64,000 nt of DNA from assembly GCA_016839585.1 (NCBI GenBank), contig JAEOTZ010000070.1, positions 1 through 64,000 of the forward strand, written 5' to 3'. The position numbers and the translations under genes are program-made. This stretch comes from Promethearchaeota archaeon. Lineage in GTDB: Archaea > Asgardarchaeota > Lokiarchaeia > Sigyniarchaeales > SOKP01. The notes beneath the pieces are model-generated. The model was not told the origin of the DNA. It saw nothing but the letters and a program-made list of their open reading frames with translations, and did no database searches. Within the stretch, counting starts at the first letter, position 1, and every line of letters begins with the position of its first letter. This document shows positions 8,062 through 33,278 of the stretch, one piece after another.

Positions 8062-9549
8062 ATGACTGAACAACAATATGATATAGCAATCATAGGAGCA
8101 GGTCCAGGAGGTTATCATGCTGCTGTAAGAGCCGCTCAATATGGAGCTAAAGTTGCTTTAATTGAGAAGAAGTATATTGGAGGGACATGTTTAAATAGGG
8201 GATGCATTCCAACAAAAGCTTTATATGCTTCAGCCCATATGATTGAAAAGGTGGAAGAGGCTGGAGAGTTTGGTGTAGAAATCACTGATTTTAAGGTCGA
8301 TTTTGCTAAAGCTGTAGATAGAAAAAATAAAATTGTACAAGAATTAGTCGAGGGTATCGCTGCGTTAGAAAATGCATGGAAGAACGATATATTCATCGGG
8401 TATGGTAAAATAAATGGAGGTATTCCTGAAACTGGATTTGAAATATCAATTCAAAGTGAAGATAATAGACTTATAAATGCCAAAAGAATTATCATAGCTA
8501 CTGGATCATCACCAGCATTAATTCCTGCATTTAATATTGATCATGAAAGAATATTAACCAGTGATGATATATTAGATCCAAATTTTAAAACAATTCCTAA
8601 AAAATTATTGATAATTGGAGCTGGTGTTATTGGATGTGAATTTGCTAATATATTTAATGCTTTTGGAAGTAAGGTAATTCTGTTAGAATACCTTCCCTCA
8701 CCAATCGCAACCGAAGAACCTATGATAGTTAAACAATTACAAAAGAAATTTCAATCACTGGGGATCGAAATAAATGTTTCACAGAATGTGTTATCTGTTG
8801 AAAATACTGGCTCCGGGGTGAAGGCTACTACTTGCTCTGCTTCTATTCCAAGAGATCAAGTTGATAGTGCTGAAAAATTTACTTTTGAAGCTGATCTCTG
8901 CTTAGTATCAATAGGTAGAGCTAAAGAGTCAAAAAATATTGGATTAGAGGAAATGGGGATTAAATCTGATAGAGGAGCAATCAAAGTTAATCCTAAAACT
9001 TTAAAAACTGATGCAGAAGGGATATATGCAATTGGGGATGTTACTGGCGGACTTATGCTCGCACATGTAGCATATCATGAGGCAGATGTAGCAGTAGCAA
9101 ATGCATTAGCAAGTATAGGTGGATTTCCAGTTCATGAAAAGACTCCTGATTATAATATAGTTCCTGCAACCATTTTTACTTCACCCAATATAGGATCTGT
9201 CGGACTGAGAAGGAAAGTAGCAAAAGATCAAGGCATTGATGTTTTAATGGGACAATTCCCGTATCAATCTCTTGGTAAAGCTAAGTGTATGGGAAAGGCG
9301 GAAGAAATTGGTTTCTTAATGATATTAGCAGAAAAGCAAACTCATAAAATCATTGGTGCATCTTGTATAGGTGTTGAAGCATCTGAATTAATCGCGGAAA
9401 TTGCCTTAGCAATGCAGCATGGGTTAACAGTTCATGATATCGGTGAAACAATCCATAGTCATCCTACTATTTCTGAGATGGTTTTGGAGGCAGCAGAAGC
9501 GGTTGTTGGTATGGCAATACACAAAAAAGGGCGACCTATTTTCCATTGA
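8062..9549 (+). CDS. lpdA: Dihydrolipoamide dehydrogenase; 3' end probably supplied by the integrated element
   Basis: GAGPGG, GGTCLNRGCIPTK, GAGVIG, HSHPTISE; ATG 8062 preferred to TTG 8053. Confidence 0.95.
   Translation: MTEQQYDIAIIGAGPGGYHAAVRAAQYGAKVALIEKKYIGGTCLNRGCIPTKALYASAHMIEKVEEAGEFGVEITDFKVDFAKAVDRKNKIVQELVEGIAALENAWKNDIFIGYGKINGGIPETGFEISIQSEDNRLINAKRIIIATGSSPALIPAFNIDHERILTSDDILDPNFKTIPKKLLIIGAGVIGCEFANIFNAFGSKVILLEYLPSPIATEEPMIVKQLQKKFQSLGIEINVSQNVLSVENTGSGVKATTCSASIPRDQVDSAEKFTFEADLCLVSIGRAKESKNIGLEEMGIKSDRGAIKVNPKTLKTDAEGIYAIGDVTGGLMLAHVAYHEADVAVANALASIGGFPVHEKTPDYNIVPATIFTSPNIGSVGLRRKVAKDQGIDVLMGQFPYQSLGKAKCMGKAEEIGFLMILAEKQTHKIIGASCIGVEASELIAEIALAMQHGLTVHDIGETIHSHPTISEMVLEAAEAVVGMAIHKKGRPIFH
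9328..9416 (+). repeat. attL-like direct repeat (89 bp, within lpdA)
   Basis: GCAGAAAAGCAAACTCATAAAATC...GCCTTAGCAATGCA identical to 33057-33145. Confidence 0.95.
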
Positions 9550-9556
9550 GATTCTA

Positions 9557-12500
9557 TTATTTTTTTTTAATCAGGTTTATCGATTCATTATATCCTTTTT
9601 CAGTTAAACTATAAATTCTAGGAAGATCTCCGTAGATTAGGTTTCCTTTTTTTATCTTTTTAGTTTCTCTTTTTAATTCAATCAGCCCCATATTTACCAA
9701 CTTCTTGAGAAATCGATTTATTATTTCTTTATTATGTCCTATAAAATCAATTAATTCATTGCCACTAATTTCATTATTATTTTTCTTTATAATGATTTCA
9801 TAAATAAGAGATAGATATTTTTTCCAACCCTCACCATATTTAAATTCTTTTCTAAGAGGATCATTAATTTTGATATTTTTGAATTTAAAATTATTAATAT
9901 TTCTGAGAATATTTATATAATTTGACTTTGCTTTCTCTTTAATATCTTTAAACTCTTTTCCAAAGATTTTATCAATATGTTTAATAAACTGGAAATGAGT
10001 TATAATTTTGTGACAATTGGAACAAAGAGCAACACATTCTTCTTCTTTTAATATTTTAATTATTTTTAGAACGTCAAACTTATTTATTTCGTCCCATCTA
10101 GATTTTTTTTTATTTGAATCTTCATTTCTATGATGGAAATCAAAGCTAGGTAAATTGTTTTGAATATGAATTTCCCCGCATCCTATACATTTTCCATTAT
10201 ATAGATTCTCAATAATGAATCTTTTCTTGAGCCATCTCTTGATTTGTGTTTTAAAACTACTTTTTTTTGAGGGAGTTAATTCCCTTAAATCTAGAGATGT
10301 CTCAATATAGTTATTAATAATTTTATCAATTTCATCAGGGGTGTTTTCAAAAAGATCATTTTTTAAAATTATTTTCTTGAATTTCTTAAAGATTTTAACT
10401 TGCTTTTTTGAATGGCAATTTGCACATAATAAGGAAACATTCTCTTTTTCTAACTCCTTAATAATGATATTTAAATTTTTATTGAAAATATCACCTAAAT
10501 TAGTTTTCTTAATTTTTTTATCTTTATGATGAAATTCTAAAGCACTAAGTTTTGTCAAATCGGTCTTGCATTCACTGCATTTTATCTTTGATTTTGAACC
10601 TAATAATTTCAATATAACAAAAATTTTCTTTTTATATTTTCTTATCGCATCTTCCTCTAATCTACATTCTTTACACTTACTTTCTAAAGATTGCTCTGAT
10701 TTATTGCTAAACTCACTATATGGCTTAATTTCATGACATTGACCACATTCCTTTCTATAACCATCATCATATAAAATTTGAAATTTCAATTTTTCTGCTT
10801 TAAACTCATCACTATTATCATTTAAATAATCAATTAATTCAGAAATGAAACTTAAAAGAGTACGTCGAGAAAGACCCAAAGTTACTTTTTTATTAATTAA
10901 CCTCGAAACAAATCGTTTTATATTGAAGATATTTCCAGTCTTCTTAATTTCTATACTTTTAAGATTTAGTTCATTAATAAGCATTACCAAATCCTTAAAA
11001 TAAAACTTAAGAGCATCAATTTCATTTTTATTGTGCACCTTTTTACTTAACTTATCCAATTCCATTCTTGGTATCTTATTAACCCATTCGGGTCTAATAT
11101 GCTCAATTTTAAAACTTTTTATTAAATATTCTACAATATCTTGATAAGTTGATATTATATTTTCATTATTTTGACTTAAACAATTAAAAATAGCTAAACT
11201 AATTATTAATCTTGCATTTCTTGGGAATTTTTTAATTGTATTAATACCCCTAGTAGACACCATATCAGTTAATTCTTTTTTATATATGTCAAGTCTAGTA
11301 AAAAAATTACTCAAAATCAATTTCCTTAAGCCTTGATCGAAATCCCAGCCCCATCTTATGTAATTTTTAGTATAATGTTTAAAAGGTTCCCCAAAAATTT
11401 GGATTAAATTTTCAGTATCGAGTTTAGTTAAAATAGATATGAGTTTTCTTCTTTTTTCTTCAGAAATATCTGACTTATTGATGATTTGGGCAATTAATTG
11501 TTTATCAATTTCGTTCAAATCCTTTAATGAGTCCATATTTTCCTTAATACATGCCTTCCAATTATAATTAAGAAGAAAGTTTTCATCGCTGGTCGTTTCT
11601 TTAAGTCTTCTTAGTTTTTGAGCGAGATGCTTCACAAATCTAGTTTTTTGTTCAGTAATACGTTCTTTAAACCAAATAATATTTCTATTATAGAAAGTTT
11701 TAAACCTTTCAAAAGCAATAAATAGTCCTTCTAAATATTCTGTTAATTCACTAACTTTATCTATCAATTTCTCAATCTCAATGATTTCCTCTTTAGTGTG
11801 ATTAGGTTTTGCTAGTAAATCCATCAATATTTTTTCGAGTTTTCTAACACTTCGATATTTCCTGATTATTTCAATCAATTCATCTTTACTTTCTTTTGAG
11901 ATTTCATTCTCATCAGCGTCATTTATCCATTTTTCTAATAGAATTTCCCATTCTTCTTTGATTTCCTCATGCTCTTTCTTTTCTAGATTTTCTTTTTTGG
12001 ATTCCTGTTGTTCCTTTAACCATTCTTCAAAACTTTTAGTAATCTTTCCTGCATATATAGGGCGTCTTCTTGTTTGTTCTTTATATTTTTCCTTAAGTTC
12101 CTTCGAAATCTCTTGAGTTTTTTCGTTATGAGTGCTTGATCTTATCTCTTCTTCTTTTTTAATCTCTGCTTTAACTTCATTGGTTTCTTCATTTTTGATA
12201 AAATTTTTTTCTTTGGTTTCTCTTGATTCCTTATTAATCTCTTTATCTGATTTTTTCTCATCCTTTTGACTATTTATTTCTTGTTTCGATTCTTGATTTT
12301 CTGTTTTTATTTCTTGTGATTTTTGAATATCCTGCGATTTCTCTAAAGCAACTATTTCAGCAATAAAGCTAGCCAACTTTGATAATTCAGGAGAAGAATA
12401 TTCATTATTTGCATAAACTAAAACCTCTTCTTTTTCTTGACTTTCATGATCTTCATCATCTTCAAATTCAAATGTATCATCAGGAACTAGGATCGGATAT

Positions 12501-13489
12501 ATTTCCTCTCCAGCTAAATCTTCAGGATCTGCCCAATCTCCATCAGGCCATTGATCTGACTCTTGATCAGGAGTTCTTATAGGTTCTTGATCCTCATCCC
12601 TCGCAACTTCAAAAGTATCATCTGGAAGAGGTATTTCATTCAATTCTTCTCCTGCTAAATCTTCTGGATTTGCCCAATCTCCATCAGACCATTGATCTGA
12701 TTCTTGTTCGGGAGATTCTACGGGTTCTTGATCTTGATCACTTGAATTATCAAATGTATCATCAGGAACCGAAATCGAATATATTGCCTCTCCAGCTAAA
12801 TCTTCAGGATCTGCCCAATCTCCATCGGGCCATTGATCTGACTCTTGCTCAGGAGTTTCTACAGGTTCCTGATCTGGTTCACTTACTTGTTCAAATGTAT
12901 CATCTGGTATTGGAATCTCTGGGATCTCTTGTCCTGCTAGATCGTCGGGATTTGCCCAATCTCCATCAGGCCATTGATCAGGCTCTTGTTCTTGATCACC
13001 TGGAAAGTCAAAGGTATCATCTGGTACTGGAATTTCAGGAATTTCATCACCAGCCAATTCCCAATCATCCTCTCCATCTGGAATCTCCTCTTGTTCAGGT
13101 TCTTCTTCAGGAGTATCAACAGGCTCATTAATATTTTCTTCTACTGATTCGGTTTCAGGGGGTAGCATAACTGTAACAGTTCCGTTCCTCCCTTGATTTG
13201 GGTTATAATTATCGTTTATATCCTCCTCATCATTACTTTCCTCATTATTATCAGATGTGGTTTCCCCATCATCGTTATTATCAGAAGTTGTATCTTGATC
13301 ATTATCATTTTCTTCACCCCAGTCATATTCTTCATTGGGATCAAAGCTATCACTCCAATCATATTCCTCATCGGGATCAAAATTATCACTCCAGTCGTAA
13401 TCTTCATTTGGATCAAACTCCTCCTCGGTATCACCATCTGGCTCATTTTCTGGCTCTCCTTCATCGTATTCATCGCCAGATTCACTAAT
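9557..13489 (-). CDS. Giant acidic-repeat protein with Zn finger, two HNH-like nuclease domains and C-terminal wHTH (~1310 aa with ATT start)
   Basis: Frame open 107 codons upstream of ATG 13168 to ATT 13489, GGAGG 9 nt upstream; CGQC..CKEC; CSEC..LEFHH..LCANCH; CIGC..FDFHH..LCSNCH; RFLKKLVNMGLI..YSLTEKG. Confidence 0.75.
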   Translation of the reverse strand: MSESGDEYDEGEPENEPDGDTEEEFDPNEDYDWSDNFDPDEEYDWSDSFDPNEEYDWGEENDNDQDTTSDNNDDGETTSDNNEESNDEEDINDNYNPNQGRNGTVTVMLPPETESVEENINEPVDTPEEEPEQEEIPDGEDDWELAGDEIPEIPVPDDTFDFPGDQEQEPDQWPDGDWANPDDLAGQEIPEIPIPDDTFEQVSEPDQEPVETPEQESDQWPDGDWADPEDLAGEAIYSISVPDDTFDNSSDQDQEPVESPEQESDQWSDGDWANPEDLAGEELNEIPLPDDTFEVARDEDQEPIRTPDQESDQWPDGDWADPEDLAGEEIYPILVPDDTFEFEDDEDHESQEKEEVLVYANNEYSSPELSKLASFIAEIVALEKSQDIQKSQEIKTENQESKQEINSQKDEKKSDKEINKESRETKEKNFIKNEETNEVKAEIKKEEEIRSSTHNEKTQEISKELKEKYKEQTRRRPIYAGKITKSFEEWLKEQQESKKENLEKKEHEEIKEEWEILLEKWINDADENEISKESKDELIEIIRKYRSVRKLEKILMDLLAKPNHTKEEIIEIEKLIDKVSELTEYLEGLFIAFERFKTFYNRNIIWFKERITEQKTRFVKHLAQKLRRLKETTSDENFLLNYNWKACIKENMDSLKDLNEIDKQLIAQIINKSDISEEKRRKLISILTKLDTENLIQIFGEPFKHYTKNYIRWGWDFDQGLRKLILSNFFTRLDIYKKELTDMVSTRGINTIKKFPRNARLIISLAIFNCLSQNNENIISTYQDIVEYLIKSFKIEHIRPEWVNKIPRMELDKLSKKVHNKNEIDALKFYFKDLVMLINELNLKSIEIKKTGNIFNIKRFVSRLINKKVTLGLSRRTLLSFISELIDYLNDNSDEFKAEKLKFQILYDDGYRKECGQCHEIKPYSEFSNKSEQSLESKCKECRLEEDAIRKYKKKIFVILKLLGSKSKIKCSECKTDLTKLSALEFHHKDKKIKKTNLGDIFNKNLNIIIKELEKENVSLLCANCHSKKQVKIFKKFKKIILKNDLFENTPDEIDKIINNYIETSLDLRELTPSKKSSFKTQIKRWLKKRFIIENLYNGKCIGCGEIHIQNNLPSFDFHHRNEDSNKKKSRWDEINKFDVLKIIKILKEEECVALCSNCHKIITHFQFIKHIDKIFGKEFKDIKEKAKSNYINILRNINNFKFKNIKINDPLRKEFKYGEGWKKYLSLIYEIIIKKNNNEISGNELIDFIGHNKEIINRFLKKLVNMGLIELKRETKKIKKGNLIYGDLPRIYSLTEKGYNESINLIKKK
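12470..13080 (-). repeat. 141-bp (47-aa) tandem coding repeat, 4 full units plus a partial one
   Basis: DQWPDGDWAxPEDLAGEEIxxIxxPDDTF units; CATCxGxCCA anchors at 12541, 12682, 12823, 12964. Confidence 0.9.
13310..13418 (-). repeat. 36-bp (12-aa) coding repeat x3
   Basis: FDPNEDYDWSDN / FDPDEEYDWSDS / FDPNEEYDWGEE; GGATCAAA at 13338, 13374, 13410. Confidence 0.85.
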
Positions 13490-13532: not shown

Positions 13533-15689
13533 TCAATTTTTCTCTTTAAGTTTAGTAGATTCTTCTACTGGATTATCACCACTCAGCTTAGAATCTAAAT
13601 TTAAAGGAATCCCACAGGCACTACAAAAATTATCATAAGGCTCTATGTAATTATCACATAAAGGGCATAACTTCTCAGGATTCTTTACAGTCTGGGGTGG
13701 TACTTTCTCATAATTAAAATCTATGGTATAAATAGCAAAATTTCGGCTATTAATACCATCTTTTACTATTGCTTTTCTTTTTCCTAAAAGCATTAAGGAA
13801 TCTTGCTCTTCTCTGTCATTCGTAAATAATTTAGTACAGCCATGTCCTAATGTAAATAAAATATGAATATTTGGAAGAGTATATATCGATTCGAATAGCT
13901 GAGAAGGTAATTGGGCAGTAGTTATAAGACCAATTCCTCTACTTCTAAAAGCTTCTAAGAAATTACAAAAAACCTCTTCTAGAAAATACTGTGATACAAA
14001 ATCATCATCACGAGCTATATTAGTGGCGGGTATTTTTAAGATATCTCCAACTTCATCTAAAATAACTAAGTTCTTTAATTCATTAGTTTTAATTTGAGGA
14101 AAAAAAATCTGTATCATCTGGAATATTAAATTGATTAAGAGCTTTTTCATAAATTTATTGCAAATAGATTCGGATATATCAATAAATACGTTTTTACCAT
14201 TCATCCATTCAATAAACCAATATGGCTTAATAGAAGGTAATCTTGTTATCTTATCTAAGATTGGAGATTTTACCCATTTATAAATCCGATTTTCAATAGC
14301 ATTCACAATATTGGTTTGGTATTCCTTATCATAGGGATGATCTTTAAACCAAATTAGAAGTTTTCCAACCAAGGACTTTAATGAGGGGGGAAGATCATTA
14401 TTTTTTTCAAAATATGCAATCATTGCATTGTACATAGCATGATCGACTGGCTGTTTTAATCCCATTGAGGAAACTAATAAAGCTGCTAATTCCTCAAATG
14501 TAACCTCAATATTTTCTCTTTTAAAGTAATATGGAACTCTAAAATCTGGATCTCCATATCTCAATGTTATATCCAAATTGTAAGGGATATCTTCTTTACT
14601 TTTCCTTAGACCAATAATCAGAACTCCACATTTAGGAATTTTTTTAGATATCTCATGCTGTAAAAAGTTTACAAATCTGGTTTTTCCAACTCCCGTTTTA
14701 CCGCCTACAAAAGCATGACGAGTAAGATCATTAACTGGTAATGAAGCTATTCTTTCCGTTATTACTCCACGACTTATATAATACCCAAGAGAAATCTCAT
14801 TTTTATTAGGTCTTTGAGTAAAACTTATATTTTCATTTCTTACATGAATTGCTTTATCAATTAGTATATGTTCAGGAATTTCAAAATCCACAATTTCTGG
14901 ATTCACAAATCCAGGCATTTTATCTTCTGAAATTTGATCCTGAATACCTCTATAATACCTTCCTGTTACCTTACCTAAAAGGTTTTTCCAAAAAGGTCTT
15001 TCACTCAATATGTTCTCCCATGTCTCATTTGGTGCCTGTCTAATGGTAGCTTTCATACCATCGATATTGTGGATATCAGTTGTTAAATATTCTATATGCC
15101 CTTTCAGTTCTTCCATTTGTTTTTCAATATCTGAACTTTCATCGAACCTCGGCATTATAGAAACAAAGATTTTTATTTTGTAATTTTCATCAAGCTTATA
15201 TTCCTTTTCTAATTCTGTCTCTTCAATTCCTCCTCCTAATATAGAGTCATCTTTTTGCCATAGAACATATATCTTAATTGAGTGTTTGTTATTAAAGGTA
15301 AAAAGATTGATGATCTTTTTAAAAAGATTTATCTTTTTATTGAATGGTGGTTTTGGGAGTACAACTTCGAAAAAGATTTTCTTTTCATTTAATTTTTTGG
15401 AGTATAATGGTTTCACTTTCACAGTTCCTGATAATCCGGGATAAATTTCTTTTAAATAATCCAAAAATTTATATCCACTCTTGAGAGCTTCTGCTTTAGA
15501 ATTTTCTTTTAAAAAAAATTTCCATGAAAAATATTCATCATCTATTGTAAATTTTGTACCATATACATGACCATCGACAAAAGGATCGCATAACCACGAT
15601 ATGTTCTCTTCACTTTTGTTTTTCAGATTGGGAACTTGAGTTATTTTTATAACAGCATGATAAAACTCAGGTTTTACTATTATCACCAA
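13533..15689 (-). CDS. HerA/FtsK/VirB4-superfamily ATPase with C-terminal zinc ribbon
   Basis: RHAFVGGKTGVGKT (Walker A), LVILDE (Walker B), RSRGIGLITTAQLPS; CPLC...CSACG. Confidence 0.85.
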   Translation of the reverse strand: MVIIVKPEFYHAVIKITQVPNLKNKSEENISWLCDPFVDGHVYGTKFTIDDEYFSWKFFLKENSKAEALKSGYKFLDYLKEIYPGLSGTVKVKPLYSKKLNEKKIFFEVVLPKPPFNKKINLFKKIINLFTFNNKHSIKIYVLWQKDDSILGGGIEETELEKEYKLDENYKIKIFVSIMPRFDESSDIEKQMEELKGHIEYLTTDIHNIDGMKATIRQAPNETWENILSERPFWKNLLGKVTGRYYRGIQDQISEDKMPGFVNPEIVDFEIPEHILIDKAIHVRNENISFTQRPNKNEISLGYYISRGVITERIASLPVNDLTRHAFVGGKTGVGKTRFVNFLQHEISKKIPKCGVLIIGLRKSKEDIPYNLDITLRYGDPDFRVPYYFKRENIEVTFEELAALLVSSMGLKQPVDHAMYNAMIAYFEKNNDLPPSLKSLVGKLLIWFKDHPYDKEYQTNIVNAIENRIYKWVKSPILDKITRLPSIKPYWFIEWMNGKNVFIDISESICNKFMKKLLINLIFQMIQIFFPQIKTNELKNLVILDEVGDILKIPATNIARDDDFVSQYFLEEVFCNFLEAFRSRGIGLITTAQLPSQLFESIYTLPNIHILFTLGHGCTKLFTNDREEQDSLMLLGKRKAIVKDGINSRNFAIYTIDFNYEKVPPQTVKNPEKLCPLCDNYIEPYDNFCSACGIPLNLDSKLSGDNPVEESTKLKEKN

Positions 15690-16440: not shown

Positions 16441-17310
16441 TCATTTTACCAGTAAATCCTTTTCTGAAAGATAGAATTTAGAATAATAGCGAATTACTCC
16501 CATCCCTGCTGTTCGATTTGCCCCTACATTAGTATATTCGCCAAGTTTACATAAGATTTCCAACCACCTACAGTTATTCGAATAATCTTCATTGACAAAC
16601 TCGTAATCATATTCTCGATTTAATTTTATTAAGAAATGCTTGTAATAATTTTTATTTATTTTTGTTACTTTAAAGCTCGCATTTCCTAAAAAACCCACAA
16701 CAGGCTTTGGCTTACCTATATCTGTTCTAACTGTCCTCATTTTATGCCCGCTTACATACACATGAGCATTTACCCAATTTATAAAAGTTTCCCGATCGAT
16801 TTCTGCCTCACTCCTTAATATATCGTTCCAGATATTTACCAAATTCCCAAATAAAAGATTTGGAATTGGTAACCTCACAGGATAATCCCCCATGCTCGTA
16901 TTAAAATATGCCGGCTTAACAAAATTTAAGCTAAATACTTTTACTGGCTTTGCCTGTTCTAAAAATGTTCGAAAATTAAGACGCTCGATTTTAACTCTCG
17001 AAACAAAATAATTTTTTTCACCAATTCTAAGCTTAGCCTTTTCGTTTGACAATAAATCTTCAAGCAAAGTATCACTTAAAACCTCGTTGTAAGAAACTAA
17101 AATAAAATTAATTTTCGGAATTTTTTTGTCAATTTTACAATTTATTGAATATGGTCGAATTTCCTCGTATTCATGAAGTTGATGGACTAACTCTGGTTTA
17201 ATATTTTTTAACCACTCCATAATAACTCCACGAAAGATGTATCCATATGGATGATCGTAAGGCTTAATTCGTCCATCTTCCGGATACAATTCAAATGTTA
17301 ATTTTATCAT
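16441..17310 (-). CDS. cas6: CRISPR-associated endoribonuclease Cas6
   Basis: LHE..EIRPYS, VVGFLG, C-terminal G-loop GEYTNVGANRTAGMG. Confidence 0.92.
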   Translation of the reverse strand: MIKLTFELYPEDGRIKPYDHPYGYIFRGVIMEWLKNIKPELVHQLHEYEEIRPYSINCKIDKKIPKINFILVSYNEVLSDTLLEDLLSNEKAKLRIGEKNYFVSRVKIERLNFRTFLEQAKPVKVFSLNFVKPAYFNTSMGDYPVRLPIPNLLFGNLVNIWNDILRSEAEIDRETFINWVNAHVYVSGHKMRTVRTDIGKPKPVVGFLGNASFKVTKINKNYYKHFLIKLNREYDYEFVNEDYSNNCRWLEILCKLGEYTNVGANRTAGMGVIRYYSKFYLSEKDLLVK

Positions 17311-17362
17311 GCTCTTTATTTTAAAAAAAAAGATTTTAAGATTTATTATATTTTAAAAAGTC

Positions 17363-20175: not shown

Positions 20176-20673
20176 AAAGGTAAATAAGATTTAATCTTTA
20201 TCGTCGTGTCTGCCATTATATTTAAAAACGTCTTAAGTAAACTTTGATAATGATTAATCAGATCTTTATATACAGAATTTAAAAAAATTTATTTTGCGAC
20301 TATATAGATGAACAGCTAGGAACAATAAATTAAAAATAATTTATCTCTTGCTTTTAGCACGGTCTCTCTGGTTGTATTCAAAATAAAAATAAAGTTTGAT
20401 TAGATATTAAACTTTATCTAATTTTAGGAATAATTTTATAGAATGATTTAAGTAAGACGATGGTAACATTTTTATAAATTTTTTACTTACTTGTAATTTA
20501 ATAAAAATTGGGAAATCTCCAATTTTTGACTGTAAATAATTAAAATTTAATTAGAAATCTTAAATGCTCACATTACACTTTTAGCAAATAGCTAAATCTA
20601 ATAAGATTGAAAAAAAGTGTTAAAATGGGCAATAATTTTAAAAATCTCAACAAATAAGGTAAGAAAATAGAAG

Positions 20674-23463: not shown

Positions 23464-23576
23464 TTTATAATCTTCTTCTTTTTTTTATTTGTATTCCTCT
23501 TTATCTTTAACCTATTCATAAAATAGAGAAAATTGATATTGATCAGTTTATATTAAATATAATGTTCTAAAAGTTC

Positions 23577-24272
23577 TTAATGTTTTAATTTTAATTTCCT
23601 GCTTGAGTTAACCAAGTGAACCATTGAGTTTAAAAATTTAAAGCTATATTTCCATATATAGTAGAAAACCATAATCATCAGGTATATAATAATTTCATGG
23701 AATTTGGAAAAATATAGATTCGATAAGATTGTCCAAACAATAAAGATTGACAAAATTAAAAGAATAATCTGATAAGCAGAATATTTAGGATTGTTAATGA
23801 AAGAATCTGGAATATTTTTTAAATCTGTGGAAGAAGGAGCGGCAGAGAACATAATTGAAAGTATTATGAAGAAACTTAAGAAAAATGATATTTCATCTCT
23901 TGGATGAACTACAAAATCTAATAGTAAAAAGCAAATCCAGAATGAAAATAATAAAGGAGCTAATCCCACTAATAGAGCTTGAAGGAAAGTTATCTTATCT
24001 TCTCCTTTAACCATTATACATCCATTAAATTCATATTTTTTATATCTTGGACCCAGTTCTGTTTTGGTTATTTCTAAAAATTTTACATTATTAATTGGAG
24101 TATTTGTAATTATACACATGACAATATGAAAGAATTCGTGAATTATGATACCTACTATCATTAGACCTACAATAATCTTTTTGAACGGTTCGGGGGTATA
24201 TTTCATCAAAAGATAAGAAACAACAAGTGAGAACAATAGAAAAATAATAATAGCTGGAATTTCCTCAAACAT
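23577..24272 (-). CDS. Membrane zinc metallopeptidase (M50/M50B-like)
   Basis: IIIHEFFH within a TM segment, GLAPLL, APSSTD. Confidence 0.75.
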   Translation of the reverse strand: MFEEIPAIIIFLLFSLVVSYLLMKYTPEPFKKIIVGLMIVGIIIHEFFHIVMCIITNTPINNVKFLEITKTELGPRYKKYEFNGCIMVKGEDKITFLQALLVGLAPLLFSFWICFLLLDFVVHPRDEISFFLSFFIILSIMFSAAPSSTDLKNIPDSFINNPKYSAYQIILLILSIFIVWTILSNLYFSKFHEIIIYLMIMVFYYIWKYSFKFLNSMVHLVNSSRKLKLKH

Positions 24273-24325
24273 ACTTTTATCACATTCTCATATTTCATTT
24301 GAGACAATTTAGATCATTTTAGAAT

Positions 24326-24359
24326 TAAATATTTATAAATAAAAAACGAAATTTGTGAA
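24326..24359 (-). promoter_or_regulatory. Shared island promoter motif, copy 2
   Basis: TAAATATTTATAAATAAAAAACGAAATTTGTGAA. Confidence 0.55.
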
Positions 24360-24446
24360 TTGCTTTTTTTCATTTATAAATGCTGGTTATATTTGAGATT
24401 AAAAACATTAATTACGAAAAATAATAATGAAATTACTTTGGTTTCT

Positions 24447-24978
24447 ATGAATTCACTAATGGAAAATAAAAATTCTTCAGATCCGTTTTGGGAGCAGGAT
24501 TTAACCAATGCTGACATTAATACCTTAATCATTAAAATTCTTAGATTTAAACCTGAATGGATTTATCAAATTTGTGAAAATCCTCAAAGACTAAAAGAAG
24601 AATATGGATTGCGTGAATTTTTTGAAAAAGCTAATGTGCTAAAGTATATAGTGAAGAATTTTAATAGAATTCCATTAAAGAATTTCATATCTGATATTTT
24701 AGCAGACTCTCATATATATTGATGAAGACAATATTATTTCAGAAGAAGTTAAAGCAATTAATAAAAATACATATAATTCTTCGAGATTATACAATAAACT
24801 TCCCCCTAACGAGCATGTTTATCAAGATAGTCATGGAAACAGTTTGGAATTAAATTATCATATAAAAATGGAGAATTATTTAAATATTTTAGAATTTTAT
24901 TGCGTCATTTCTATTATTTGCGAAAAAAATCATCAAATCTCTTATTATGTAAAAAAAAGTAAAAAAAAAGTAATTTAA
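24447..24978 (+). pseudogene. Hypothetical protein frameshifted in an AT dinucleotide run
   Basis: ORF ends CAT ATA TAT TGA at 24722; the +1 frame stays open 24718-24978; adding one AT unit fuses the two. Confidence 0.5.
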
Positions 24979-24980
24979 AA

Positions 24981-26981
24981 TTAGGATACTTTATTATGCT
25001 TTTTCTTAATTATTAGAGATATAAACAAGATAATAAATATCATCAGTAAGCACACAGGATATCCTGGAATAATACCACCTCCGTTTCCATCTTCTTGACC
25101 CCCATCTATAATAGTCCAATTAAAATTAGTAATGATAAATTGTCTTGCATCCGCAGCTGCGCTACTGTATGTGGAATTACCTGCATGAAAGGTTACACCG
25201 GTTTGCAAGGTTAATTGCGACCAGCCTAATAATAAATTATCATAATTAGGCGTTGATAATGTAACACCATAGAACATATCACTCATGTCTGTGACGCTCG
25301 AGACATCCCAGCTACCGATGGGCTGGTTGAATGAAAAGGCCCAAAAGAACATAGACCTCATGTTTGTGTCGCTCGAGACATCCCAGCTTCCGATGGGTTG
25401 GTTGAATGAAGAAGCCTCGTAGAACATAACCACCATGTTTGTGACGCTCGAGACATCCCAGCTGCCGATGGGTTGGTTGAATGAAGAAGCCCCCAAGAAC
25501 ATAGCCACCATGTTTGTGACGCTCGAGACATCCCAGCTGCCGATGGGCTGGTTGAATGAATAAGCCCCCCAGAACATATACCCTATGTCTGTGACGCTCG
25601 AGACATCCCAGCTGTCGATGGGCTGGTTGAATGAAGAAGCCCCCAAGAACATAGAATACATGGATGTCACGCTCGAGACATCCCAGCTGCCGATGGGCTG
25701 GTTGAATGAAGAAGCCCACGCGAACATATGACCCATGTTTGTGACGCTCGAGACATCCCAGCTACCGATGGACTGGTTGAATGAAGAAGCCTCCGCGAAC
25801 ATAGCATACATGTTTGTGACGCTCGAGACATCCCAACTCCCGATGGACTGGTTGAAGGAATCAGCCCCCGCGAACATATACTCCATGTTTGTGACGCTCG
25901 AGACATCCCAGCTGTCGATGGACTGGTTGAATGAAGAAGTCCCCCAGAACATATGACCCATGTTTGTGACGCTCGAGACATCCCAGCTGTCGATGGGCTG
26001 GTTGAAGGAATCAGCCCCATAAAACATATACCCCATGTTTGTGACGCTCGAGACATCCCAGCTGTCGATGGGCTGGTTGAAGGAATCAGCCCCATAGAAC
26101 ATATACCCCATGTTTGTGACGCTCGAGACATCCCAGCTGTCGATGGGCTGGTTGAATGAAGAAGCCACCCAGAACATAGAATATATGGATGTCACGCTCG
26201 AGACATCCCAGCTGCCGATGGGCTGGTTGAAGGAAGAAGCCCCCAAGAACATAGAATACATGGATGTCACGCTCGAGACATCCCAGCTGCCGATAGGTTG
26301 GTTGAAGGAAGAAGCCCTATAGAACATACTCCTCATGTCTGTGACGTTCAGGACATCCCAGCCGTCCATGTTACCGCTATTACCAAGATTATAGCAATTT
26401 CTAAAAGCCATATATAAGGTGGTCGTTCCCGTTAAATTCAAATTATCAGTAGAAGTGAGTTCTAAATTGGAGCACCCATAAAAATAACTCCCTGAATCTC
26501 CTAATTGCAAGCAACCCCATTGTTGGATTTCAAGGATTTTCAATCGATCTCCCCCATTATCAAAACACCAACCAATAATCTTTCCTGTGATATTAATGGT
26601 GTACACTCCCTCGGAAGGATAAGTGTGTGTCACCTCATCTTGATTCCAGATTGTGATCGTGTCATTGCTCTCGTCTCCCCAATCCACCAAGAAATTATAA
26701 TCTCCACCCGATTGCAATGGTAAGGTCACTTGATTACTAAGACTGGAACCAGAGCTTGTCTTGGTCGTGTCCCAGACTGAGAGAAACTCGTCTGGGTTTT
26801 GTGCATTCCGTATAGTAAACTCCACGCTGGTGGGCGTTTGCTTTTGTTCATGAAATGGAGGCATAGAGGTTGAAATATTTAGCAACACCAAAGAAGATAA
26901 TAGTAAAAGTGTTATACTTAACTTTAATAATTTATTTTTCATCAATCTAATCACATATATGATTAATAGTATATTTCTCAA
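24981..26981 (-). CDS. BspA/DUF285 LRR-like surface protein with Loki-CTERM-type anchor
   Basis: Signal peptide; VDWGD PKD-like region; 25-aa [20 protein letters not shown] repeats; [12 protein letters not shown]; true start probably the second Met (MKNKLLK). Confidence 0.9.
25280..26370 (-). repeat. 75-bp tandem coding repeat, 14 full units (15 WDV motifs)
   Basis: Conserved GACGCTCGAGACATCCCAGC core in nearly every unit; visibly more GC-rich than the flanks. Confidence 0.95.
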
Positions 26982-27087: not shown

Positions 27088-30000
27088 TTAACTTATATAG
27101 GATTGAAATTTAGTATAAAACTCAAATAATAAATCATGAAGATTTTTAACAGTTTTTTCAATATTTGAGGTATTTGATATAATTTCCTTGTATTTTTTAA
27201 AATAATCTCTAAGTTCATCTTTAGTTAAAGGAATTAGGTTATTTTTAGCTAAATGGTCAAAAAATATTTCAGGATCATTAATCTCAGGTATAGAGATATC
27301 ATTTTCTTGGAGATATGATTGATGGAGATTAATTAAGAAGTCTTTTATGAAATTTTCTCCAATTTTAAGAGATTTACCATATTCATTTTTGTTGTTAGCA
27401 GAAAATATTTTATAGGATTTCCATAATAATTTACTGCATTGTTCAAGTAATATCTCATTGAACTTTTCATGATTTATGATGTCTTTCTTGGTCTCTTTCC
27501 GAAAATAATCAAGAATATTTGAATCTGAATCAGAGTTTCTCTCAATGACTTCAACAGAAGCATTGGTTAAATAATCTCCTTTTGTTTGAAAGTAATCATT
27601 CAAAGCTTCATCGTATTTTGTTCCCACTTTATAACAAGTCCTAATGGATTCTGAACCACCTGCTTTATGAGGATGAGCTTCAACTAAATATCCGTGTTTA
27701 ACAAGAATATGGAACAAATCATCTCGTAATTCGCTTATCTGCTTTTTATTTTTTACTTTTTTAGAAGCTTTTGAAGCTATGAACTTTGAAAGTTCACTTT
27801 TAAGTTTTTGGCGGTATAATCCTCCTACTTTATCAACAGTTTTAACAGCATTTAGAAAGTTAATAATCTCATCAATAAAGTCAATATACAGACCTAAATC
27901 TTTTTCAAATAGGGTTTTTTTAGCTTTCTCTGTTATTCTTCTTTCAGCTAATTTTAATTTATACCCTTGTTTTTCCATATAAATTAAAATTTTTTCATAT
28001 TGAAGAGGTTGAATGCCTTTAAGTTCAGTCAATTCAATAACTCCTGGAAAAGGTTGATAAATGTCCGTTCTTTTAATTATTACTTCATTTTCACGCATAT
28101 TCATTAAATAATTAATTTGGTAAGTATTATTCCTTTTAGAGCTATAATATCCGGTACCCTGTAATTCTTGTAAATTCATTTGATTTTTCAATACGGCTAT
28201 ATCTCGTGTATCAGTTGCTCTAAAAGTTATGATATTATGTAAAAAACTGAAAACATTAGGATGCAGATATCTAATTTGATTTGCTGAGCAAATTAATCCA
28301 AATCCACATTCAAGGAAAGGTTCTAAAAATTTACTAACTTTACCGTAATTTGTGGTATTATAGTTATTATCAATAAAAAAGGAATCAAAAAACATATCAA
28401 TATTAGGTATAAAAATGACTTTTTTATAATAATCGGTAGAATTTTGGAGGTAATGAATTAGTTTTGAAATAATTATAAAAGTGACAAAAGTTTTTTGCTC
28501 TAAGTCTTTTAAAATTGAAAGATCGACTATAATTGACTTATCATTTCTCAAAAAGTCAATTGGATTAATCTCATCCTCATGATCAAGTGTTAAATTAGAA
28601 AAAATTTGACTCTGACTTCTAAAATCCCTAAATATTGCTATTAAATTATTAGTTTTGTAATCTCTTTCCCATTTATTTTTCATTTCAAGATCTAAGGATA
28701 TTGAAGATACATCTAATTCATCCTGTTTTAAAAAGGAGTCTTTTAGAAGATCGACATATCTTTTTTCTGCTTTAAAGGCTAAAGCAAACGTATCAAAGAA
28801 TAGATTTAAATAATCAATATTATTCTTATCATATTTCATACCCGAGTGCTTTAGATCGATGCTAAATGAACTTCCCAACTTGAAATACAAAATATTTCTA
28901 TTATATTGAGAGTCTTTGAAAAAGTTAATTAATTTTGAACATTTTCCTGAGTAATCAAAAACTAAACAAGATTTATTTGCTTTGACAAGCTCAGACACAA
29001 TTTTCATTTTTGCATGTTCTCGATTGTAAGAAAGACCATTTGTTATAAGTAATTGTCGCAATTGGTCAAAAGTCAATCCAAAAGGAACCTCTTCATCTAA
29101 GAACTCCGTATTGATTGTATTTCCAATTGTTATAAAATTGTTTAATTGTAAAGGGGTATTAAATTCAGCAGCAATTCTCGTATCTATTCCTTTTTTAAAT
29201 TCATTAACTATCTTCGCAAGCTCTATTAGACTTTTACCTTGGAAGTATACATAATTTAAATGAGTTCCATTCAATCTAAAGGAATGATTTTTAAGACATT
29301 CACTTAAAAATCCTGAAATTAAGAGTTGGTTTTTTAATCCAACAAGTTTAAAATTTAAGAAATTATCTTCAAATGTTCTTTTCAAAATTTTTGCATTTGT
29401 GGATAATTCTTTATCTAACTCAATGAAATTCTTAAATGTTAAGTCTTTTGTAAATAAATAGGAAGAGGTTGACACAGTTAACATTGTCTTCCAAACACCA
29501 GATCTCATATCTAACCATTTTTCAAATTCAATTTCCGGATGTTTAACTTTTTTTGAAGAAGTTTTATCTAAAGTAATATATAGTATTCCTTCGAGGCTTT
29601 CTTTCGTTTTATCATTCAACAACTTAAGACATTCTTTTGAAAAGAGATTAGCAGATATTGGAGTAACTTGTAAATTGTAATTGAAAATAATCTTATATTT
29701 ATCGATTCCCCTAATAAATTTATCAAAATAAGTTAAAGTTGGCTGTGCGGCAAATTTGAGGTTAAATATTTTTGAAGCCAATAGTAATTGGTTGTTAATA
29801 TAAGTAAAAATTAGATCATTGTATTTCTTTAATCGATAAAACTCAACATCTGTAAATGGATTTATTTGAGTTAATTCCAAATTACGAGATAGACGCGATT
29901 TTAAGAAATAAAAAAGAATTTCTCTCCACCATATACAAATTATAAGCAATTCCAAGAGGAAATTAATGAGTATTATAAATCCTAATGGAAAAATTAGACT

Positions 30001-30957
30001 TAATAATAAATATGAGAGATATATTATAAGAAAAGACACAAAACCTGTTTTGAATAATACTTTAGGTAAATTTCTTTTAGCTATAAAAAGATCTTCCTTA
30101 TCTACAGGTTGTATGGATGATTTACAGAAAAATGCTCTTATTGCATTTATTAAATCAATTCCATCTAATAATGAGATTTTTGTATGGTGAAAGTTAGCAC
30201 TAAAATTTGATTTGAATTCATTAGAAAGATCAGTAACAATTTCTATTAGTTTATCTATTTTATTGCTAGATAAAATCCCATTAATATTATAATACACACA
30301 AAAATAAATTGAGGTATGGAATGAATCAATAGAACTTAAATTTTGAGATCTAATTGATTCCACTTGAAATCTATTTTCAGAGGATGGTTCAGAAAAATCT
30401 AAATACGGACTTTGAACCACTTGATACGTATATGATATTTGAGCTTTATTCAATGCTTTGAGAAATTGATTTAATGTGGGATAAACATTTTCTGGAAGTG
30501 TTTCGATTTTGAATATTCGCATTGCTGTTGATATGGCATCCTTTTTATTAAAAATTAAAAGAAAAGTGGGTTCTTCCTTTATTGTGCAAAAAGATAAATT
30601 TTCAAAAGGATTTATAGAAATAAATTTATGGAATAGGTAATAGTATAGGTTTTTGAGATTAAAGAAATTATCAGAAAAAGCGAATATAAAAAAGAGCAAT
30701 GTAAATATTGTCAATCCGATTGAAATATATAAATTAGTAGTTAATAGATAAGTTGAAATAGCTAAAAAAAATAAAATAATTGTTAATGATATTCCTTTAA
30801 TTATGGAAAATCTCGAATTAATATCCTTATATGAAGGATTCACATCCCAAATATCCAAATAATCAGATGAGAATTCTGCTACTTCGTATGATTCTATCTT
30901 ATCATCTTTTTTGATCTTACTATTTGCCTTTGAAAGATCCTTATACATAGCACACAT
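27088..30957 (-). CDS. Membrane-anchored VirB4/HerA-like protein with degenerate Walker motifs
   Basis: Two N-terminal TM hairpins; LLITNGLSYNREH at the Walker A position, CLVFDYSG, IIVDLS, VIFIPNID at Walker B, GFGLICSANQ. Confidence 0.65.
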   Translation of the reverse strand: MCAMYKDLSKANSKIKKDDKIESYEVAEFSSDYLDIWDVNPSYKDINSRFSIIKGISLTIILFFLAISTYLLTTNLYISIGLTIFTLLFFIFAFSDNFFNLKNLYYYLFHKFISINPFENLSFCTIKEEPTFLLIFNKKDAISTAMRIFKIETLPENVYPTLNQFLKALNKAQISYTYQVVQSPYLDFSEPSSENRFQVESIRSQNLSSIDSFHTSIYFCVYYNINGILSSNKIDKLIEIVTDLSNEFKSNFSANFHHTKISLLDGIDLINAIRAFFCKSSIQPVDKEDLFIAKRNLPKVLFKTGFVSFLIIYLSYLLLSLIFPLGFIILINFLLELLIICIWWREILFYFLKSRLSRNLELTQINPFTDVEFYRLKKYNDLIFTYINNQLLLASKIFNLKFAAQPTLTYFDKFIRGIDKYKIIFNYNLQVTPISANLFSKECLKLLNDKTKESLEGILYITLDKTSSKKVKHPEIEFEKWLDMRSGVWKTMLTVSTSSYLFTKDLTFKNFIELDKELSTNAKILKRTFEDNFLNFKLVGLKNQLLISGFLSECLKNHSFRLNGTHLNYVYFQGKSLIELAKIVNEFKKGIDTRIAAEFNTPLQLNNFITIGNTINTEFLDEEVPFGLTFDQLRQLLITNGLSYNREHAKMKIVSELVKANKSCLVFDYSGKCSKLINFFKDSQYNRNILYFKLGSSFSIDLKHSGMKYDKNNIDYLNLFFDTFALAFKAEKRYVDLLKDSFLKQDELDVSSISLDLEMKNKWERDYKTNNLIAIFRDFRSQSQIFSNLTLDHEDEINPIDFLRNDKSIIVDLSILKDLEQKTFVTFIIISKLIHYLQNSTDYYKKVIFIPNIDMFFDSFFIDNNYNTTNYGKVSKFLEPFLECGFGLICSANQIRYLHPNVFSFLHNIITFRATDTRDIAVLKNQMNLQELQGTGYYSSKRNNTYQINYLMNMRENEVIIKRTDIYQPFPGVIELTELKGIQPLQYEKILIYMEKQGYKLKLAERRITEKAKKTLFEKDLGLYIDFIDEIINFLNAVKTVDKVGGLYRQKLKSELSKFIASKASKKVKNKKQISELRDDLFHILVKHGYLVEAHPHKAGGSESIRTCYKVGTKYDEALNDYFQTKGDYLTNASVEVIERNSDSDSNILDYFRKETKKDIINHEKFNEILLEQCSKLLWKSYKIFSANNKNEYGKSLKIGENFIKDFLINLHQSYLQENDISIPEINDPEIFFDHLAKNNLIPLTKDELRDYFKKYKEIISNTSNIEKTVKNLHDLLFEFYTKFQSYIS

Positions 30958-30963
30958 AATTAA

Positions 30964-32424
30964 TCATTTTCCAAATTTATTTGTTAAATAGTTTTTAATT
31001 TTATTACTGATTGTTATATATAAATAAAAAATTAAATTTGGCATCAATCTTTTTATAATACTTAAAAATTCCGTAAATATAGTTCTTAATATTGAATCAT
31101 TCTGATGAATAGCAGTATAAGCTATTCTTAGATAATAGAGTACATTAGTATTATTTGGATCTTTTTCTAAAGCCTTTTTACATAATTCAATTGTTTCATC
31201 AAAATTTTCATTTTCAATTAAAACCTCACATAAAGTATTTAATGCAGGTTCCAAAAAAGGATAAAAAGTTAGAGTATATCTACATGTCATGATAATCCCT
31301 TCAACATCTTTTAGTTTTCTACAAATATTAATTAGGAATTTTAATGTATTAGGTTCTTTTGGATTAATTTTAAAAGCTTCCATATACGAATCCAAAGCTG
31401 ATTCAAAATCTCCTTTTTCTTCATACACTTTTCCAAGTGAAAACCAAACCTCCAAACTAGCTGATTTGAATTTAATTATTTTTTTATAGGTATTAATTGC
31501 TTCATTATACTTTGAGATTTTATGATATGAAGACGCAATTTCATTTAACACGATAATATTATTTGGAAGAATTTCTAATGCTTCCTTTAATGTTTTAATC
31601 GCTAATCTATATCTAGATTCTTCTTTTAGAAGGATTCCAAAGTGTAACCAAACACCAAAATGTCTTCTATCTATTTTTAAACTATTCAGAAAAGCATAAA
31701 TAGCAATATCAGGTATATTATATGCTTTACAATACATGCCTATATCATACCATAATAGAAATTCTTCAAAATAGTATTTTTCTTTTAAAATATTAAAAAA
31801 AATATTAAAGATATAATTATGTATATGATTTTTTAATTTTTTAAACCCTATAGCTAAGAAGAAGATTATTTCATCTGTATTTAAATTCAGATTTTTATTG
31901 GATTCCATTTGAAAAACGTATGCTTCCAACAAACATTTAAATTCATATTCAGTTAAAATATCTACATATCCTTCATTATACAAAAAATGTTTGTTTTGGA
32001 GAGAACCATTTAGGAATCTTGCTGCAATCTCATCTTTAAATACCTTTTTTGCAGAAAAATCACCAACTTCAGTCAATTTCTTTAATAATGGGAATGCTAG
32101 ATTACTATGAAGTAATCGAGTATCGTATCTATTTTCATACCATGTCTGTAAATTCGAACAATGCCCCCAGAATTCCATTTCAGATGAGATATCATATTGT
32201 AGAGGTGAATTTACCTCTAAAGAATTATCACAATTTTCTTTAATATCATCAATAGAATTAATATTCTCATAGTCTTCTATTCTATCGATGGGGATATTCA
32301 ATAGCAAGTATTTGCAATTGATAAATTTCTCATTATTAATATAAATTGCAGTCTTATTATATTCTAATTTCAGGGTAATATATTGGTTTACTTGAAATTC
32401 TTTACTTTTTAATGATATTGACAT
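30964..32424 (-). CDS. TPR protein with Lokiarchaeia-type N-terminal domain
   Basis: ITLKLE..KT.IYIN...EFWGHCSNLQTWYEN.YDTRLLHSNLAFPLLKKL; C-terminal TPRs; ATG 32424 preferred. Confidence 0.8.
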   Translation of the reverse strand: MSISLKSKEFQVNQYITLKLEYNKTAIYINNEKFINCKYLLLNIPIDRIEDYENINSIDDIKENCDNSLEVNSPLQYDISSEMEFWGHCSNLQTWYENRYDTRLLHSNLAFPLLKKLTEVGDFSAKKVFKDEIAARFLNGSLQNKHFLYNEGYVDILTEYEFKCLLEAYVFQMESNKNLNLNTDEIIFFLAIGFKKLKNHIHNYIFNIFFNILKEKYYFEEFLLWYDIGMYCKAYNIPDIAIYAFLNSLKIDRRHFGVWLHFGILLKEESRYRLAIKTLKEALEILPNNIIVLNEIASSYHKISKYNEAINTYKKIIKFKSASLEVWFSLGKVYEEKGDFESALDSYMEAFKINPKEPNTLKFLINICRKLKDVEGIIMTCRYTLTFYPFLEPALNTLCEVLIENENFDETIELCKKALEKDPNNTNVLYYLRIAYTAIHQNDSILRTIFTEFLSIIKRLMPNLIFYLYITISNKIKNYLTNKFGK

Positions 32425-32438
32425 TTCATCCCCACAAA

Positions 32439-32954
32439 TTATAGATAATATGCCTGTTCTTGGCAAAATATTTTGGTTCCTTGATGGATTTTCACAACTT
32501 CAGTCTGTGGAGTATGATTTACTACTATTAAATCAATTTTTTCACTTCCACACCGAAAAGTTAAAATGTCTCCTTTTGAAACTACTCGATCCTTTAAAGT
32601 TTTTACTAAAACGTCTGGGGATTTTAGAATTATTCCTTTTTTATATCCTGCAAAAGAAACTTGTTGAGCAAGATAATTTTTTGTTTTTTTAGTCCTTACG
32701 ATATCTTCGAGAGATGCATTAAGATTTCTCCTTAATAATGCGTCAATTCTGATTATATTTGTACCTTCATCTCTAGGATAATTAGGAGACACTATTGCAG
32801 CGGTTAATTTTTTTTTAGAATCATTATAAATGCAAATGGTATCACCAACGTCGATATTACTCTCTAAAACTATTTTTGGATCAATTCGAGCAATGCTCTT
32901 CCCGAAATCACCTTTAAAGGCATCTTTAACCTTTAATTTTATGTCATTTATCAT
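32439..32954 (-). CDS. Stand-alone CDC48/p97 N-domain protein
   Basis: LKVKDAFKGDFGKSIARIDP...IRIDALLRRNLNAS; colinear with the N-domain of 36427-38709; no AAA domain. Confidence 0.85.
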   Translation of the reverse strand: MINDIKLKVKDAFKGDFGKSIARIDPKIVLESNIDVGDTICIYNDSKKKLTAAIVSPNYPRDEGTNIIRIDALLRRNLNASLEDIVRTKKTKNYLAQQVSFAGYKKGIILKSPDVLVKTLKDRVVSKGDILTFRCGSEKIDLIVVNHTPQTEVVKIHQGTKIFCQEQAYYL

Positions 32955-33038
32955 AATTATAATTTCTTTATTCTCAGTCTATTTAAATAAAAAAATAATA
33001 GTGAATATATTTAAAAGAAAAAAAAATAGAAAATGGTA

Positions 33039-33278
33039 TTTTTTATAATGGTACTCGCAGAAAAGCAAACTCATAAAATCATTGGTGCATCTTGTATAGG
33101 TGTTGAAGCATCTGAATTAATCGCGGAAATTGCCTTAGCAATGCAACATGGCTTAACAATACATGATGTTACAGAAACTATTCATAGTCATCCAACAGTT
33201 TCAGAAATGGTCCTAGAAGGGTGTGAAGCCGTAGTAGGAAAAGCAATCCATAAAAAAGGAAGACCTATTCACCATTAA
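33039..33278 (+). pseudogene. lpdA: Displaced 3' fragment of lpdA (attR side)
   Basis: FIMVLAEKQTHKIIGASCIG...HSHPTVSEMVLEGCEAVVGKAIHKKGRPIHH*. Confidence 0.9.
33057..33145 (+). repeat. attR-like direct repeat (89 bp)
   Basis: Identical to 9328-9416. Confidence 0.95.

Follow-up and report, generated by a model that had tools for sequence, protein, structure and literature searches.

A probable homing island that replaces the 3' end of lpdA in a Promethearchaeota archaeon

Background

Homing that replaces the end of a host gene has been published as a third class of homing element, represented by the WHO elements of a few yeasts (PMC7282813). These elements are found at FBA1 in Torulaspora and Lachancea, and cleavage has been shown to be allele-specific (PMC7282813; bioRxiv 10.64898/2026.08.13.744650). 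Here we analyse a 64,000-nucleotide stretch of a Promethearchaeota archaeon genome of the class Lokiarchaeia (positions 1 to 64,000 of contig JAEOTZ010000070.1, assembly GCA_016839585.1), referred to below as the window, in which a large island separates the dihydrolipoamide dehydrogenase gene lpdA from a second copy of its own 3' end. An earlier note on this DNA described an element lacking an integrase, with an 89-bp perfect repeat at both ends, and proposed that it integrates by homologous recombination or through a recombinase acting in trans. Our analysis indicates that the island is probably a homing element comparable to WHO, and that it entered upstream of the repeat. The nearest Atlas clusters likewise point to a Loki-type Promethearchaeota host.

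In the WHO elements, a host gene that is kept whole and a fragment of its 3' end are separated by an endonuclease gene, and neither intron nor intein is involved; the window island has the same anatomy. In both, the functional 3' end is foreign and the fragment corresponds to the host's former end, and a fixed breakpoint is found together with stacked fragments of the kind left by repeated homing. The published WHO model predicts the features that we describe below in favour of homing (PMC7282813). In contrast, WHO proteins combine an intein-derived LAGLIDADG domain with a zinc finger, are related to HO and VDE and home at meiosis, whereas the window protein has two HNH domains and a winged helix, and is archaeal and located at lpdA. 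Transposed WHO10 inserts measure 2.8-6.6 kb, as against ~20 kb of cargo, including two HerA/VirB4-like proteins, in the window island. Transposed WHO10 elements carry fragments of earlier sites, and one related island in genome G063 likewise ends with 73 nt derived from a different locus (G000 is the source genome; other G numbers are the relatives compared). Membership of the WHO family by descent is ruled out by the HNH nuclease and the lpdA target, and no homology is claimed.

Two further systems are close in anatomy. Fungal mitochondrial mORFs carry a foreign C-terminus, as at atp6 of Allomyces and at atp6, atp9, cox2 and nad3 of Glomus (PMC3630166). As in the window, a hybrid gene with a foreign tail is followed by an endonuclease open reading frame (ORF) and then by the native tail, which groups with host relatives; however, mORFs are organellar, about 1 kb long, of LAGLIDADG or GIY-YIG type, often co-transcribed or in frame and devoid of cargo, whereas the window nuclease lies on the opposite strand. 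The free-standing HNH homing endonucleases of T4-like phages, such as mobE, resemble the window island in their HNH domain, in the absence of an intron or intein, and in the mobilisation of gene and flanking DNA by gene conversion (PMC2790892). They are phage-borne, and the abstract of that source describes neither a displaced gene tail nor a large cargo. We found no paper on gene-end-replacing homing in archaea in the literature searched, which covers few subscription journals.

Results and Discussion

Two lpdA tails of different ancestry

The lpdA gene and its 3' fragment form a 236-nt direct repeat of 82% identity with a spacing of 23,729 nt (Table 1). Within it lies the perfect 89-bp repeat that had been reported at both ends of the island, exact at 9328-9416 and 33057-33145. 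The divergence described on either side of this core was also found: immediately 5' the left copy reads FLMIL and the right copy FIMVL, and 3' of the core the tails differ by 8 amino acids and by a further 20 synonymous codons (stop codon counted), across the catalytic HPTxSE motif. When the 42 mismatches of the repeat were placed randomly, none of 200,000 shuffles reached a run of 89, the best attaining 72. With the other lpdA tails tested, uninterrupted identity extends over 41 nt at most.

The right fragment is 99% identical at the protein level to the intact lpdA of G029 and 95% identical to that of G063, the two closest relatives. Relative to G063 lpdA, the 5' part of the window gene differs at 85/1209 nt (7% mismatch; 93% identical) and the displaced post-core tail at 10/130 nt (8%; Fisher p 0.72), as against 36/130 nt (28%; 94/130 identical; Fisher p 3e-11) for the functional post-core tail. 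The functional and displaced tails are identical to one another at 93/130 nt. The functional tail is under purifying selection, the proportions of nonsynonymous and synonymous differences being 0.11 (pN) and 0.86 (pS). In a tree of the tails, displaced copies group with the host lineages and the functional tail of the window falls outside the host clade. Judged by these comparisons, the right copy is the host's displaced original tail and the left copy is a foreign one, in keeping with the earlier proposal that the element carries an lpdA 3' end from another lineage and leaves the gene intact. The region downstream of the displaced tail is orthologous to that of G029; it includes an hdrA-like gene in pieces (35365-36427 and 33916-35349; ORFs of 101 and 477 amino acids) beside a full cdc48 gene, an arrangement also present in G029. 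Within lpdA itself, the final 200 nt before the junction (window 9000-9290) are nearer to G029 (95-96%) than to G063 (91-93%), unlike the 5' part as a whole, which is nearer to G063; co-conversion of flanking DNA is a possible explanation.

The identical core and the point of entry

The 15 nt 5' of the right core are identical (15/15) to the intact lpdA of G029 and G063, as compared with only 10/15 for those 5' of the left core, which also has a two-codon insertion just upstream (G-KAEEIG^FLM vs G-EEEG^FIM, where the caret marks the breakpoint). The altered left segment begins at 9295 and not, as had been stated, at 9328. The core is identical to the intact lpdA of G029 at 86/89 positions and to that of G063 at 80/89, and to other element-borne or distant tails at 66-72/89. 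Since the core is host-type sequence it points to a conversion tract and not an att site, and it is best read as a later gene-conversion tract.

It could be argued that a circle bearing an lpdA fragment integrated by homologous recombination, with the crossover inside the 89-bp core. The long identical tract does exist, and it could now support excision and re-integration by recombination. However, a crossover in the core predicts host sequence 5' of the left core and element sequence 5' of the right core; the reverse is seen, with host-type sequence before the right core and altered sequence before the left, which places entry upstream. Furthermore, the islands of G023 and G036 have no perfect core of comparable length, and the codon-precise breakpoint shared by several genomes (see below) is unexpected from general recombination. 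We regard this route as very improbable; core crossover is largely refuted as the means of entry, although it is possible as a secondary means of exit. The same polarity rules out the core both as an att site and as an entry crossover. The earlier note had favoured a conversion or crossover tract over a short att site: conversion agrees with the host-type core, and crossover conflicts with the polarity. Integration by a single crossover in the core or by a recombinase acting in trans is not supported. The flanks place the entry point upstream of the core; the start common to four displaced tails from three genomes, and the changes on both sides of it in the four nuclease-adjacent alleles (see below), put it at GEEEG^FIM.

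A candidate homing nuclease beside lpdA

The gene adjoining lpdA was not recognised as an HNH nuclease when the island ORFs were first read, but matches the PHROGs HNH endonuclease family in two stretches (E=3.8e-24). Its giant product consists, in order, of acidic Trp repeats, a charged helical region, a zinc finger, two HNH domains and a winged helix, the last three elements occupying the final 400 residues (9560-10780) after an acidic, charged stalk of ~900 amino acids. The family-invariant Cys, His and Asn residues are intact, in line with the His/Asn/His and zinc cysteines of an HNH (beta-beta-alpha-metal) motif, and the ratio of nonsynonymous to synonymous substitution rates (dN/dS) of 0.17-0.34 indicates purifying selection on the nuclease. 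The nuclease region is modelled with a predicted local distance difference test (pLDDT) score of 90, and a fold search with the whole region returned the winged helix only (Z 12). Taken together these features identify the giant ORF as a candidate site-specific homing nuclease. Related HNH genes are present in 56/161 genomes of the class, and the clade of nucleases to which the window protein belongs stays at lpdA, its G023 and G036 members being 61% identical. For comparison with the OMEGA and HEARO HNH nucleases, which are linked to a structured guide RNA, the island was searched for known RNA families; there was no Rfam match (E up to 0.1), nor any tRNA.

On the minus strand at 13487-13502, a GGAGGAG motif lies 7 nt before an in-frame ATT, a probable non-canonical start that would add 107 codons to the giant ORF; its homologues begin MSESG or MSEGG.

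Recurrence at lpdA in related genomes

Among the 54 genomes of the genus, orphan lpdA tails were observed in G003 (two), G023, G036, G029, G034 and G019. Four displaced tails from three genomes (G000, G034 and both of those in G003) start at the same Phe codon, each behind unrelated DNA; three of the remaining orphan tails start later, as after deletions, and one lies at a contig edge. The two displaced tails of G003 are stacked, each being followed by a remnant of the 3' end of the nuclease gene. Homologues of the giant nuclease abut the lpdA stop codon in G023, G036 and G147, the last of which belongs to another genus. In G023 and G036 there is almost nothing but this homologue between lpdA and the tail, G036 retaining a stub of a HerA-like gene, and an empty site matching their insertion is present in G033, G061 and G150. 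G029 has the same outer flanks as the window island but a different cargo; of the giant ORF it retains only the last few codons, and its junction is host-type.

These loci bear on whether the window was misassembled across the 89-bp repeat, joining chromosome to episome. The length of the repeat is close to common k-mer sizes, which would favour such a chimera. Against this, the same linear layout occurs in G023, G036, G029 and G003, where the repeats are not identical over a long stretch, G029 possesses both outer flanks, and the alternative assembly path would place the host-type FIMVL on the episome. A chimera is in our judgement extremely unlikely.

All four nuclease-adjacent lpdA alleles have an altered residue before the Gly and Leu for Ile after the Phe. 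Among 45 other alleles, 34 read EEEG^FI and only 3 have both changes. G034, whose displaced tail is on another contig, has a two-codon insertion resembling that of the window allele. Given kinship, the association between junction allele and nuclease is suggestive rather than statistical.

Absence of a recombinase

In agreement with the earlier note, no recombinase or transposase was detected among the island ORFs with four profile libraries (Pfam, NCBIfam, PHROGs and PADLOC), although a very divergent one could escape, and a six-frame phmmer search of the island with two Asgard tyrosine recombinases returned nothing. The genome encodes a single PF00589 protein, which is Xer-like, located on C35 and present in nearly all relatives, and has no match to the serine recombinase families PF07508 and PF00239. 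The related modules examined neither contain nor adjoin an integrase; the closest one, in G077, is separated from the module by 33 kb that includes core genes.

In Escherichia coli, phage 21 and e14 insert at icd by means of an integrase and carry a replacement 3' end. These elements and the integrated elements of Asgard archaea (passages of PMC11529989 and PMC8813620) resemble the window island in having a duplicated gene tail or site at their two ends, but unlike it they encode a tyrosine integrase or use tRNA genes or short att motifs as insertion sites. Site-specific recombination of this type at lpdA, by an integrase acting in trans or since lost, would give a similar anatomy, and an att crossover is compatible with a breakpoint that is fixed where the duplication begins on its 5' side. 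However, island-bearing alleles are also changed upstream of the breakpoint, by the two-codon insertion and by substitutions, which an att crossover does not do. The lack of an integrase in or beside the related modules, the conserved Xer-like character of the only tyrosine recombinase in the genome, and the occurrence of the family at unrelated targets with different nuclease tips also speak against it, and we consider it distinctly improbable.

A model for replacement of the lpdA 3' end

The reading that we judge probable from these comparative data is that the island is a WHO-like homing element whose arrival gives the host gene a new 3' end. Its mobile unit would comprise the replacement lpdA tail and the convergent HNH-HNH-winged-helix gene, and ~20 kb of further DNA would hitch-hike with it. 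The nuclease would cut naive lpdA at or near GEEEG^FIM, and the break would be repaired from an island-bearing copy, with the 5' part of lpdA and the displaced tail serving as homology arms, which is the mechanism put forward for WHO elements (PMC7282813). The recipient would thereby gain the island together with a resistant tail, its own tail being shifted downstream, and the 89-bp core would be made later by conversion between the direct repeats. More speculatively, the ATPase pair and membrane proteins may bring donor DNA or the nuclease into other cells.

Several observations weigh against this account. The approximately unbiased (AU) test on the 133-nt tails is non-significant, a single clade of G000-lineage tails not being rejected (p-AU 0.127). 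A single HNH domain gives fold matches mostly to HNH or Endo VII, but with Z of no more than 4.6 these are weak. Among ~50 lpdA loci, none was an empty site with exactly the downstream flank that the island has in this genome (o109-hdrA). The four alleles that look resistant do not count as independent cases, since G023 and G036 are kin, and similar junction changes occur in G024, G067 and G103 without an adjacent nuclease. Elsewhere, a terminal duplication was found at only 5 loci among 31 neighbour tests of related modules, in which many contigs are cut and many insertions look intergenic. Finally, the same far end of the island occurs at about ten unrelated loci, and homing explains spread at one site only.

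If the homing account is true, Asgard archaea acquire islands of 10-25 kb without any integrase, conserved genes carry chimeric 3' ends that can mislead phylogenies, and frequent cell-to-cell DNA contact is implied in a lineage with poorly known genetic exchange. The locus offers one nuclease domain, one predicted cut site, and putatively sensitive and resistant natural alleles.

The same layout at other genes

The earlier note had asked whether ATPase/nuclease loci elsewhere are also flanked by duplicated gene tails, which is so at the five loci mentioned above and not at most others. At dapB, two ABC genes and a GH20 gene, related HNH genes adjoin gene ends that are duplicated. A glycerol-3-phosphate dehydrogenase gene of G077 is parted from its displaced tail by an island that has both ATPase-like genes, shares the far-end motif and bears a LAGLIDADG tip. 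For the smc, trpS, GTPase and HDAC neighbours, no displaced end was found within the stretch examined. Duplicated gene ends are also located beside short stand-alone HNH genes with no ATPase partner nearby, in G155, G034 and G081.

On contig C1 of G081 (L097), the head and the tail of a single ABC transporter gene both occur as displaced copies, and a separate HNH gene lies between the copies in each case. At least five genomes, belonging to two genera, have a stand-alone double-HNH gene of ~318 amino acids immediately before a small Lsm-like gene (L043:5980-6933, L048:5659-6615, L099:7646-8602, L100:4265-5227 and L101:7974-8930), where no duplicated gene end was noticed.

Cargo, chassis and far end of the island

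Table 1. Features of the lpdA locus and island in the window
Feature	Coordinates	Strand	Basis or remark
lpdA, intact chimeric dihydrolipoamide dehydrogenase gene (host 5' part and replacement 3' end)	8062..9549	+	Pfam Pyr_redox_2, Pyr_redox_dim
Altered stretch over inferred cut site, putative nuclease immunity	9295..9327	+	G-KAEEIG^FLMIL instead of G-EEEG^FIMVL
Left copy of 89-bp perfect core, host-lineage sequence	9328..9416	+	Comparison with intact lpdA genes
Foreign recoded lpdA tail carried by element (HPTISE..GMAIHKKGRP)	9417..9549	+	Divergence from displaced tail
Giant protein, ~1310 aa, probable ATT start; candidate homing endonuclease, convergent with lpdA	9557..13489	-	PHROGs, conserved residues, model
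HerA/FtsK-superfamily ATPase, intact Walker A	13533..15689	-	Directly upstream of giant protein in most related islands examined
cas6 and CARF-HEPN gene, remnant of type III CRISPR-Cas cargo	16441..18700	-	Comparison with G063
Variable cargo: SHOCT membrane protein, PPC/C39 peptidase, DUF285 surface protein	19201..26981		Profile search
M50-like membrane protein, within variable cargo	23577-24272		Recurs beside ATPases in many loci
1289-aa HerA/VirB4-like protein, hydrophobic N-terminal segments, degenerate Walker A	27088..30957	-	Atlas neighbours
TPR protein and stand-alone CDC48 N-domain gene, first genes of conserved module	30964..32954	-	Same order in two G063 elements
Conserved far end, AT-rich promoter motif of CDC48-N gene	32979..33041		Found beside ~ten different host loci
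Displaced original host lpdA tail, begins at Phe codon of G^FIMV, contains right core	33042..33278	+	Identity to G029/G063 lpdA

A recurring chassis is apparent in the related islands, composed of the CDC48-N, TPR, 1289-residue pseudo-ATPase, M50-like and HerA-like ATPase genes and the acidic stalk, the last of which bears swappable tips: HNH, LAGLIDADG, DUF4379 zinc fingers or unassigned repeats. At the far end, similarity to related islands ceases within ~60 nt and gives way to unrelated host DNA. G063 has most of the chassis genes at other loci, with 83-94% identity, and its own lpdA has a host-type junction and no adjacent nuclease. Thus a close relative does in part possess these genes without the duplication, an observation that the earlier note had listed as contrary to its reading: the ATPase module of G063 has no lpdA tail beside it.

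A conjugative element with type IV secretion would be expected to have VirB4 and coupling-protein ATPases, a relaxase and an origin of transfer; both ATPases of the island are HerA/FtsK-superfamily-like. Single-query searches of the PDB gave nothing, a profile gave weak HerA or packaging-ATPase matches, and a match to TraD is weak (E=0.026). The 1289-residue protein has no Pfam or PDB match, its Atlas neighbours are DUF87/TrwB clusters (0.90-0.91), copies in G063 are 92-94% identical, and its degenerate Walker A suggests that it is probably inactive as an ATPase. Relatives of this protein occur in 101/134 genomes of the family, mostly as a single copy of ~40% identity, a pattern hinting that, in addition to the mobile copies, there is one that is resident or domesticated. 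No relaxase family matched the island ORFs in general library scans, no search aimed at relaxases having been made. The type III system of which the window has a remnant is fuller in G063, where cas10, RAMP genes and a repeat array come after a cas6 of 92% identity.

The variety of tips raises another possibility, that the nuclease is a conflict or defence effector, akin to a polymorphic-toxin tip, delivered by the ATPase pair. Mobility of the island would then depend on a different route, by break capture or transposition, that defines the far end, and the tail duplications would be by-products. The swappable tip, the conservation of the far end at many unrelated loci and the absence of a gene-end duplication from most related islands are all consistent with this. 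Nevertheless, the identified tips are of homing-endonuclease types, no immunity gene was recognised beside the tip, stand-alone HNH genes without an ATPase partner adjoin duplicated gene ends, and the lpdA nuclease clade stays at lpdA with its target altered beside it; we consider an effector of this kind unlikely. Starting instead from the homing account, a wider generalisation can be entertained, though we hold it as doubtful: the islands might form a class of integrase-free, self-transmissible, conjugative-like elements of Loki-type Asgard archaea, in which the chassis would move DNA between cells, the site would be picked by an exchangeable homing-endonuclease tip paired with the corresponding recoded gene end, homing would replace the integrase, and whole CRISPR-Cas systems could be carried.

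Other traces of these islands were noted. Related islands on G063 C22 (L052-L053) and C70 (L056) contain long CRISPR-like repeat arrays, one of them with a type III cas operon. In the source genome, C43:18167-18304 (L130) is an island scar consisting of the far end and ~15 codons of the CDC48-N gene, where G063 has a fuller copy, and two further chassis loci lie on C76 (5435-17568) and C27 (17743-22642). The stalk on C76 ends in unassigned helical repeats, and the 86% identical stalk of G063 ends in HNH domains beside trpS; the tip on C27 resembles, by eye, an intein-type LAGLIDADG region.

The island shows no composition shift (GC content 29% vs 30-31%). Within it, the DUF285 gene (25197-26471) has tandem 75-nt repeats and a GC content of 42-47%, well above that of the island, and the PPC/C39 peptidase gene (20821-22419) contains repeats of ~324 nt.

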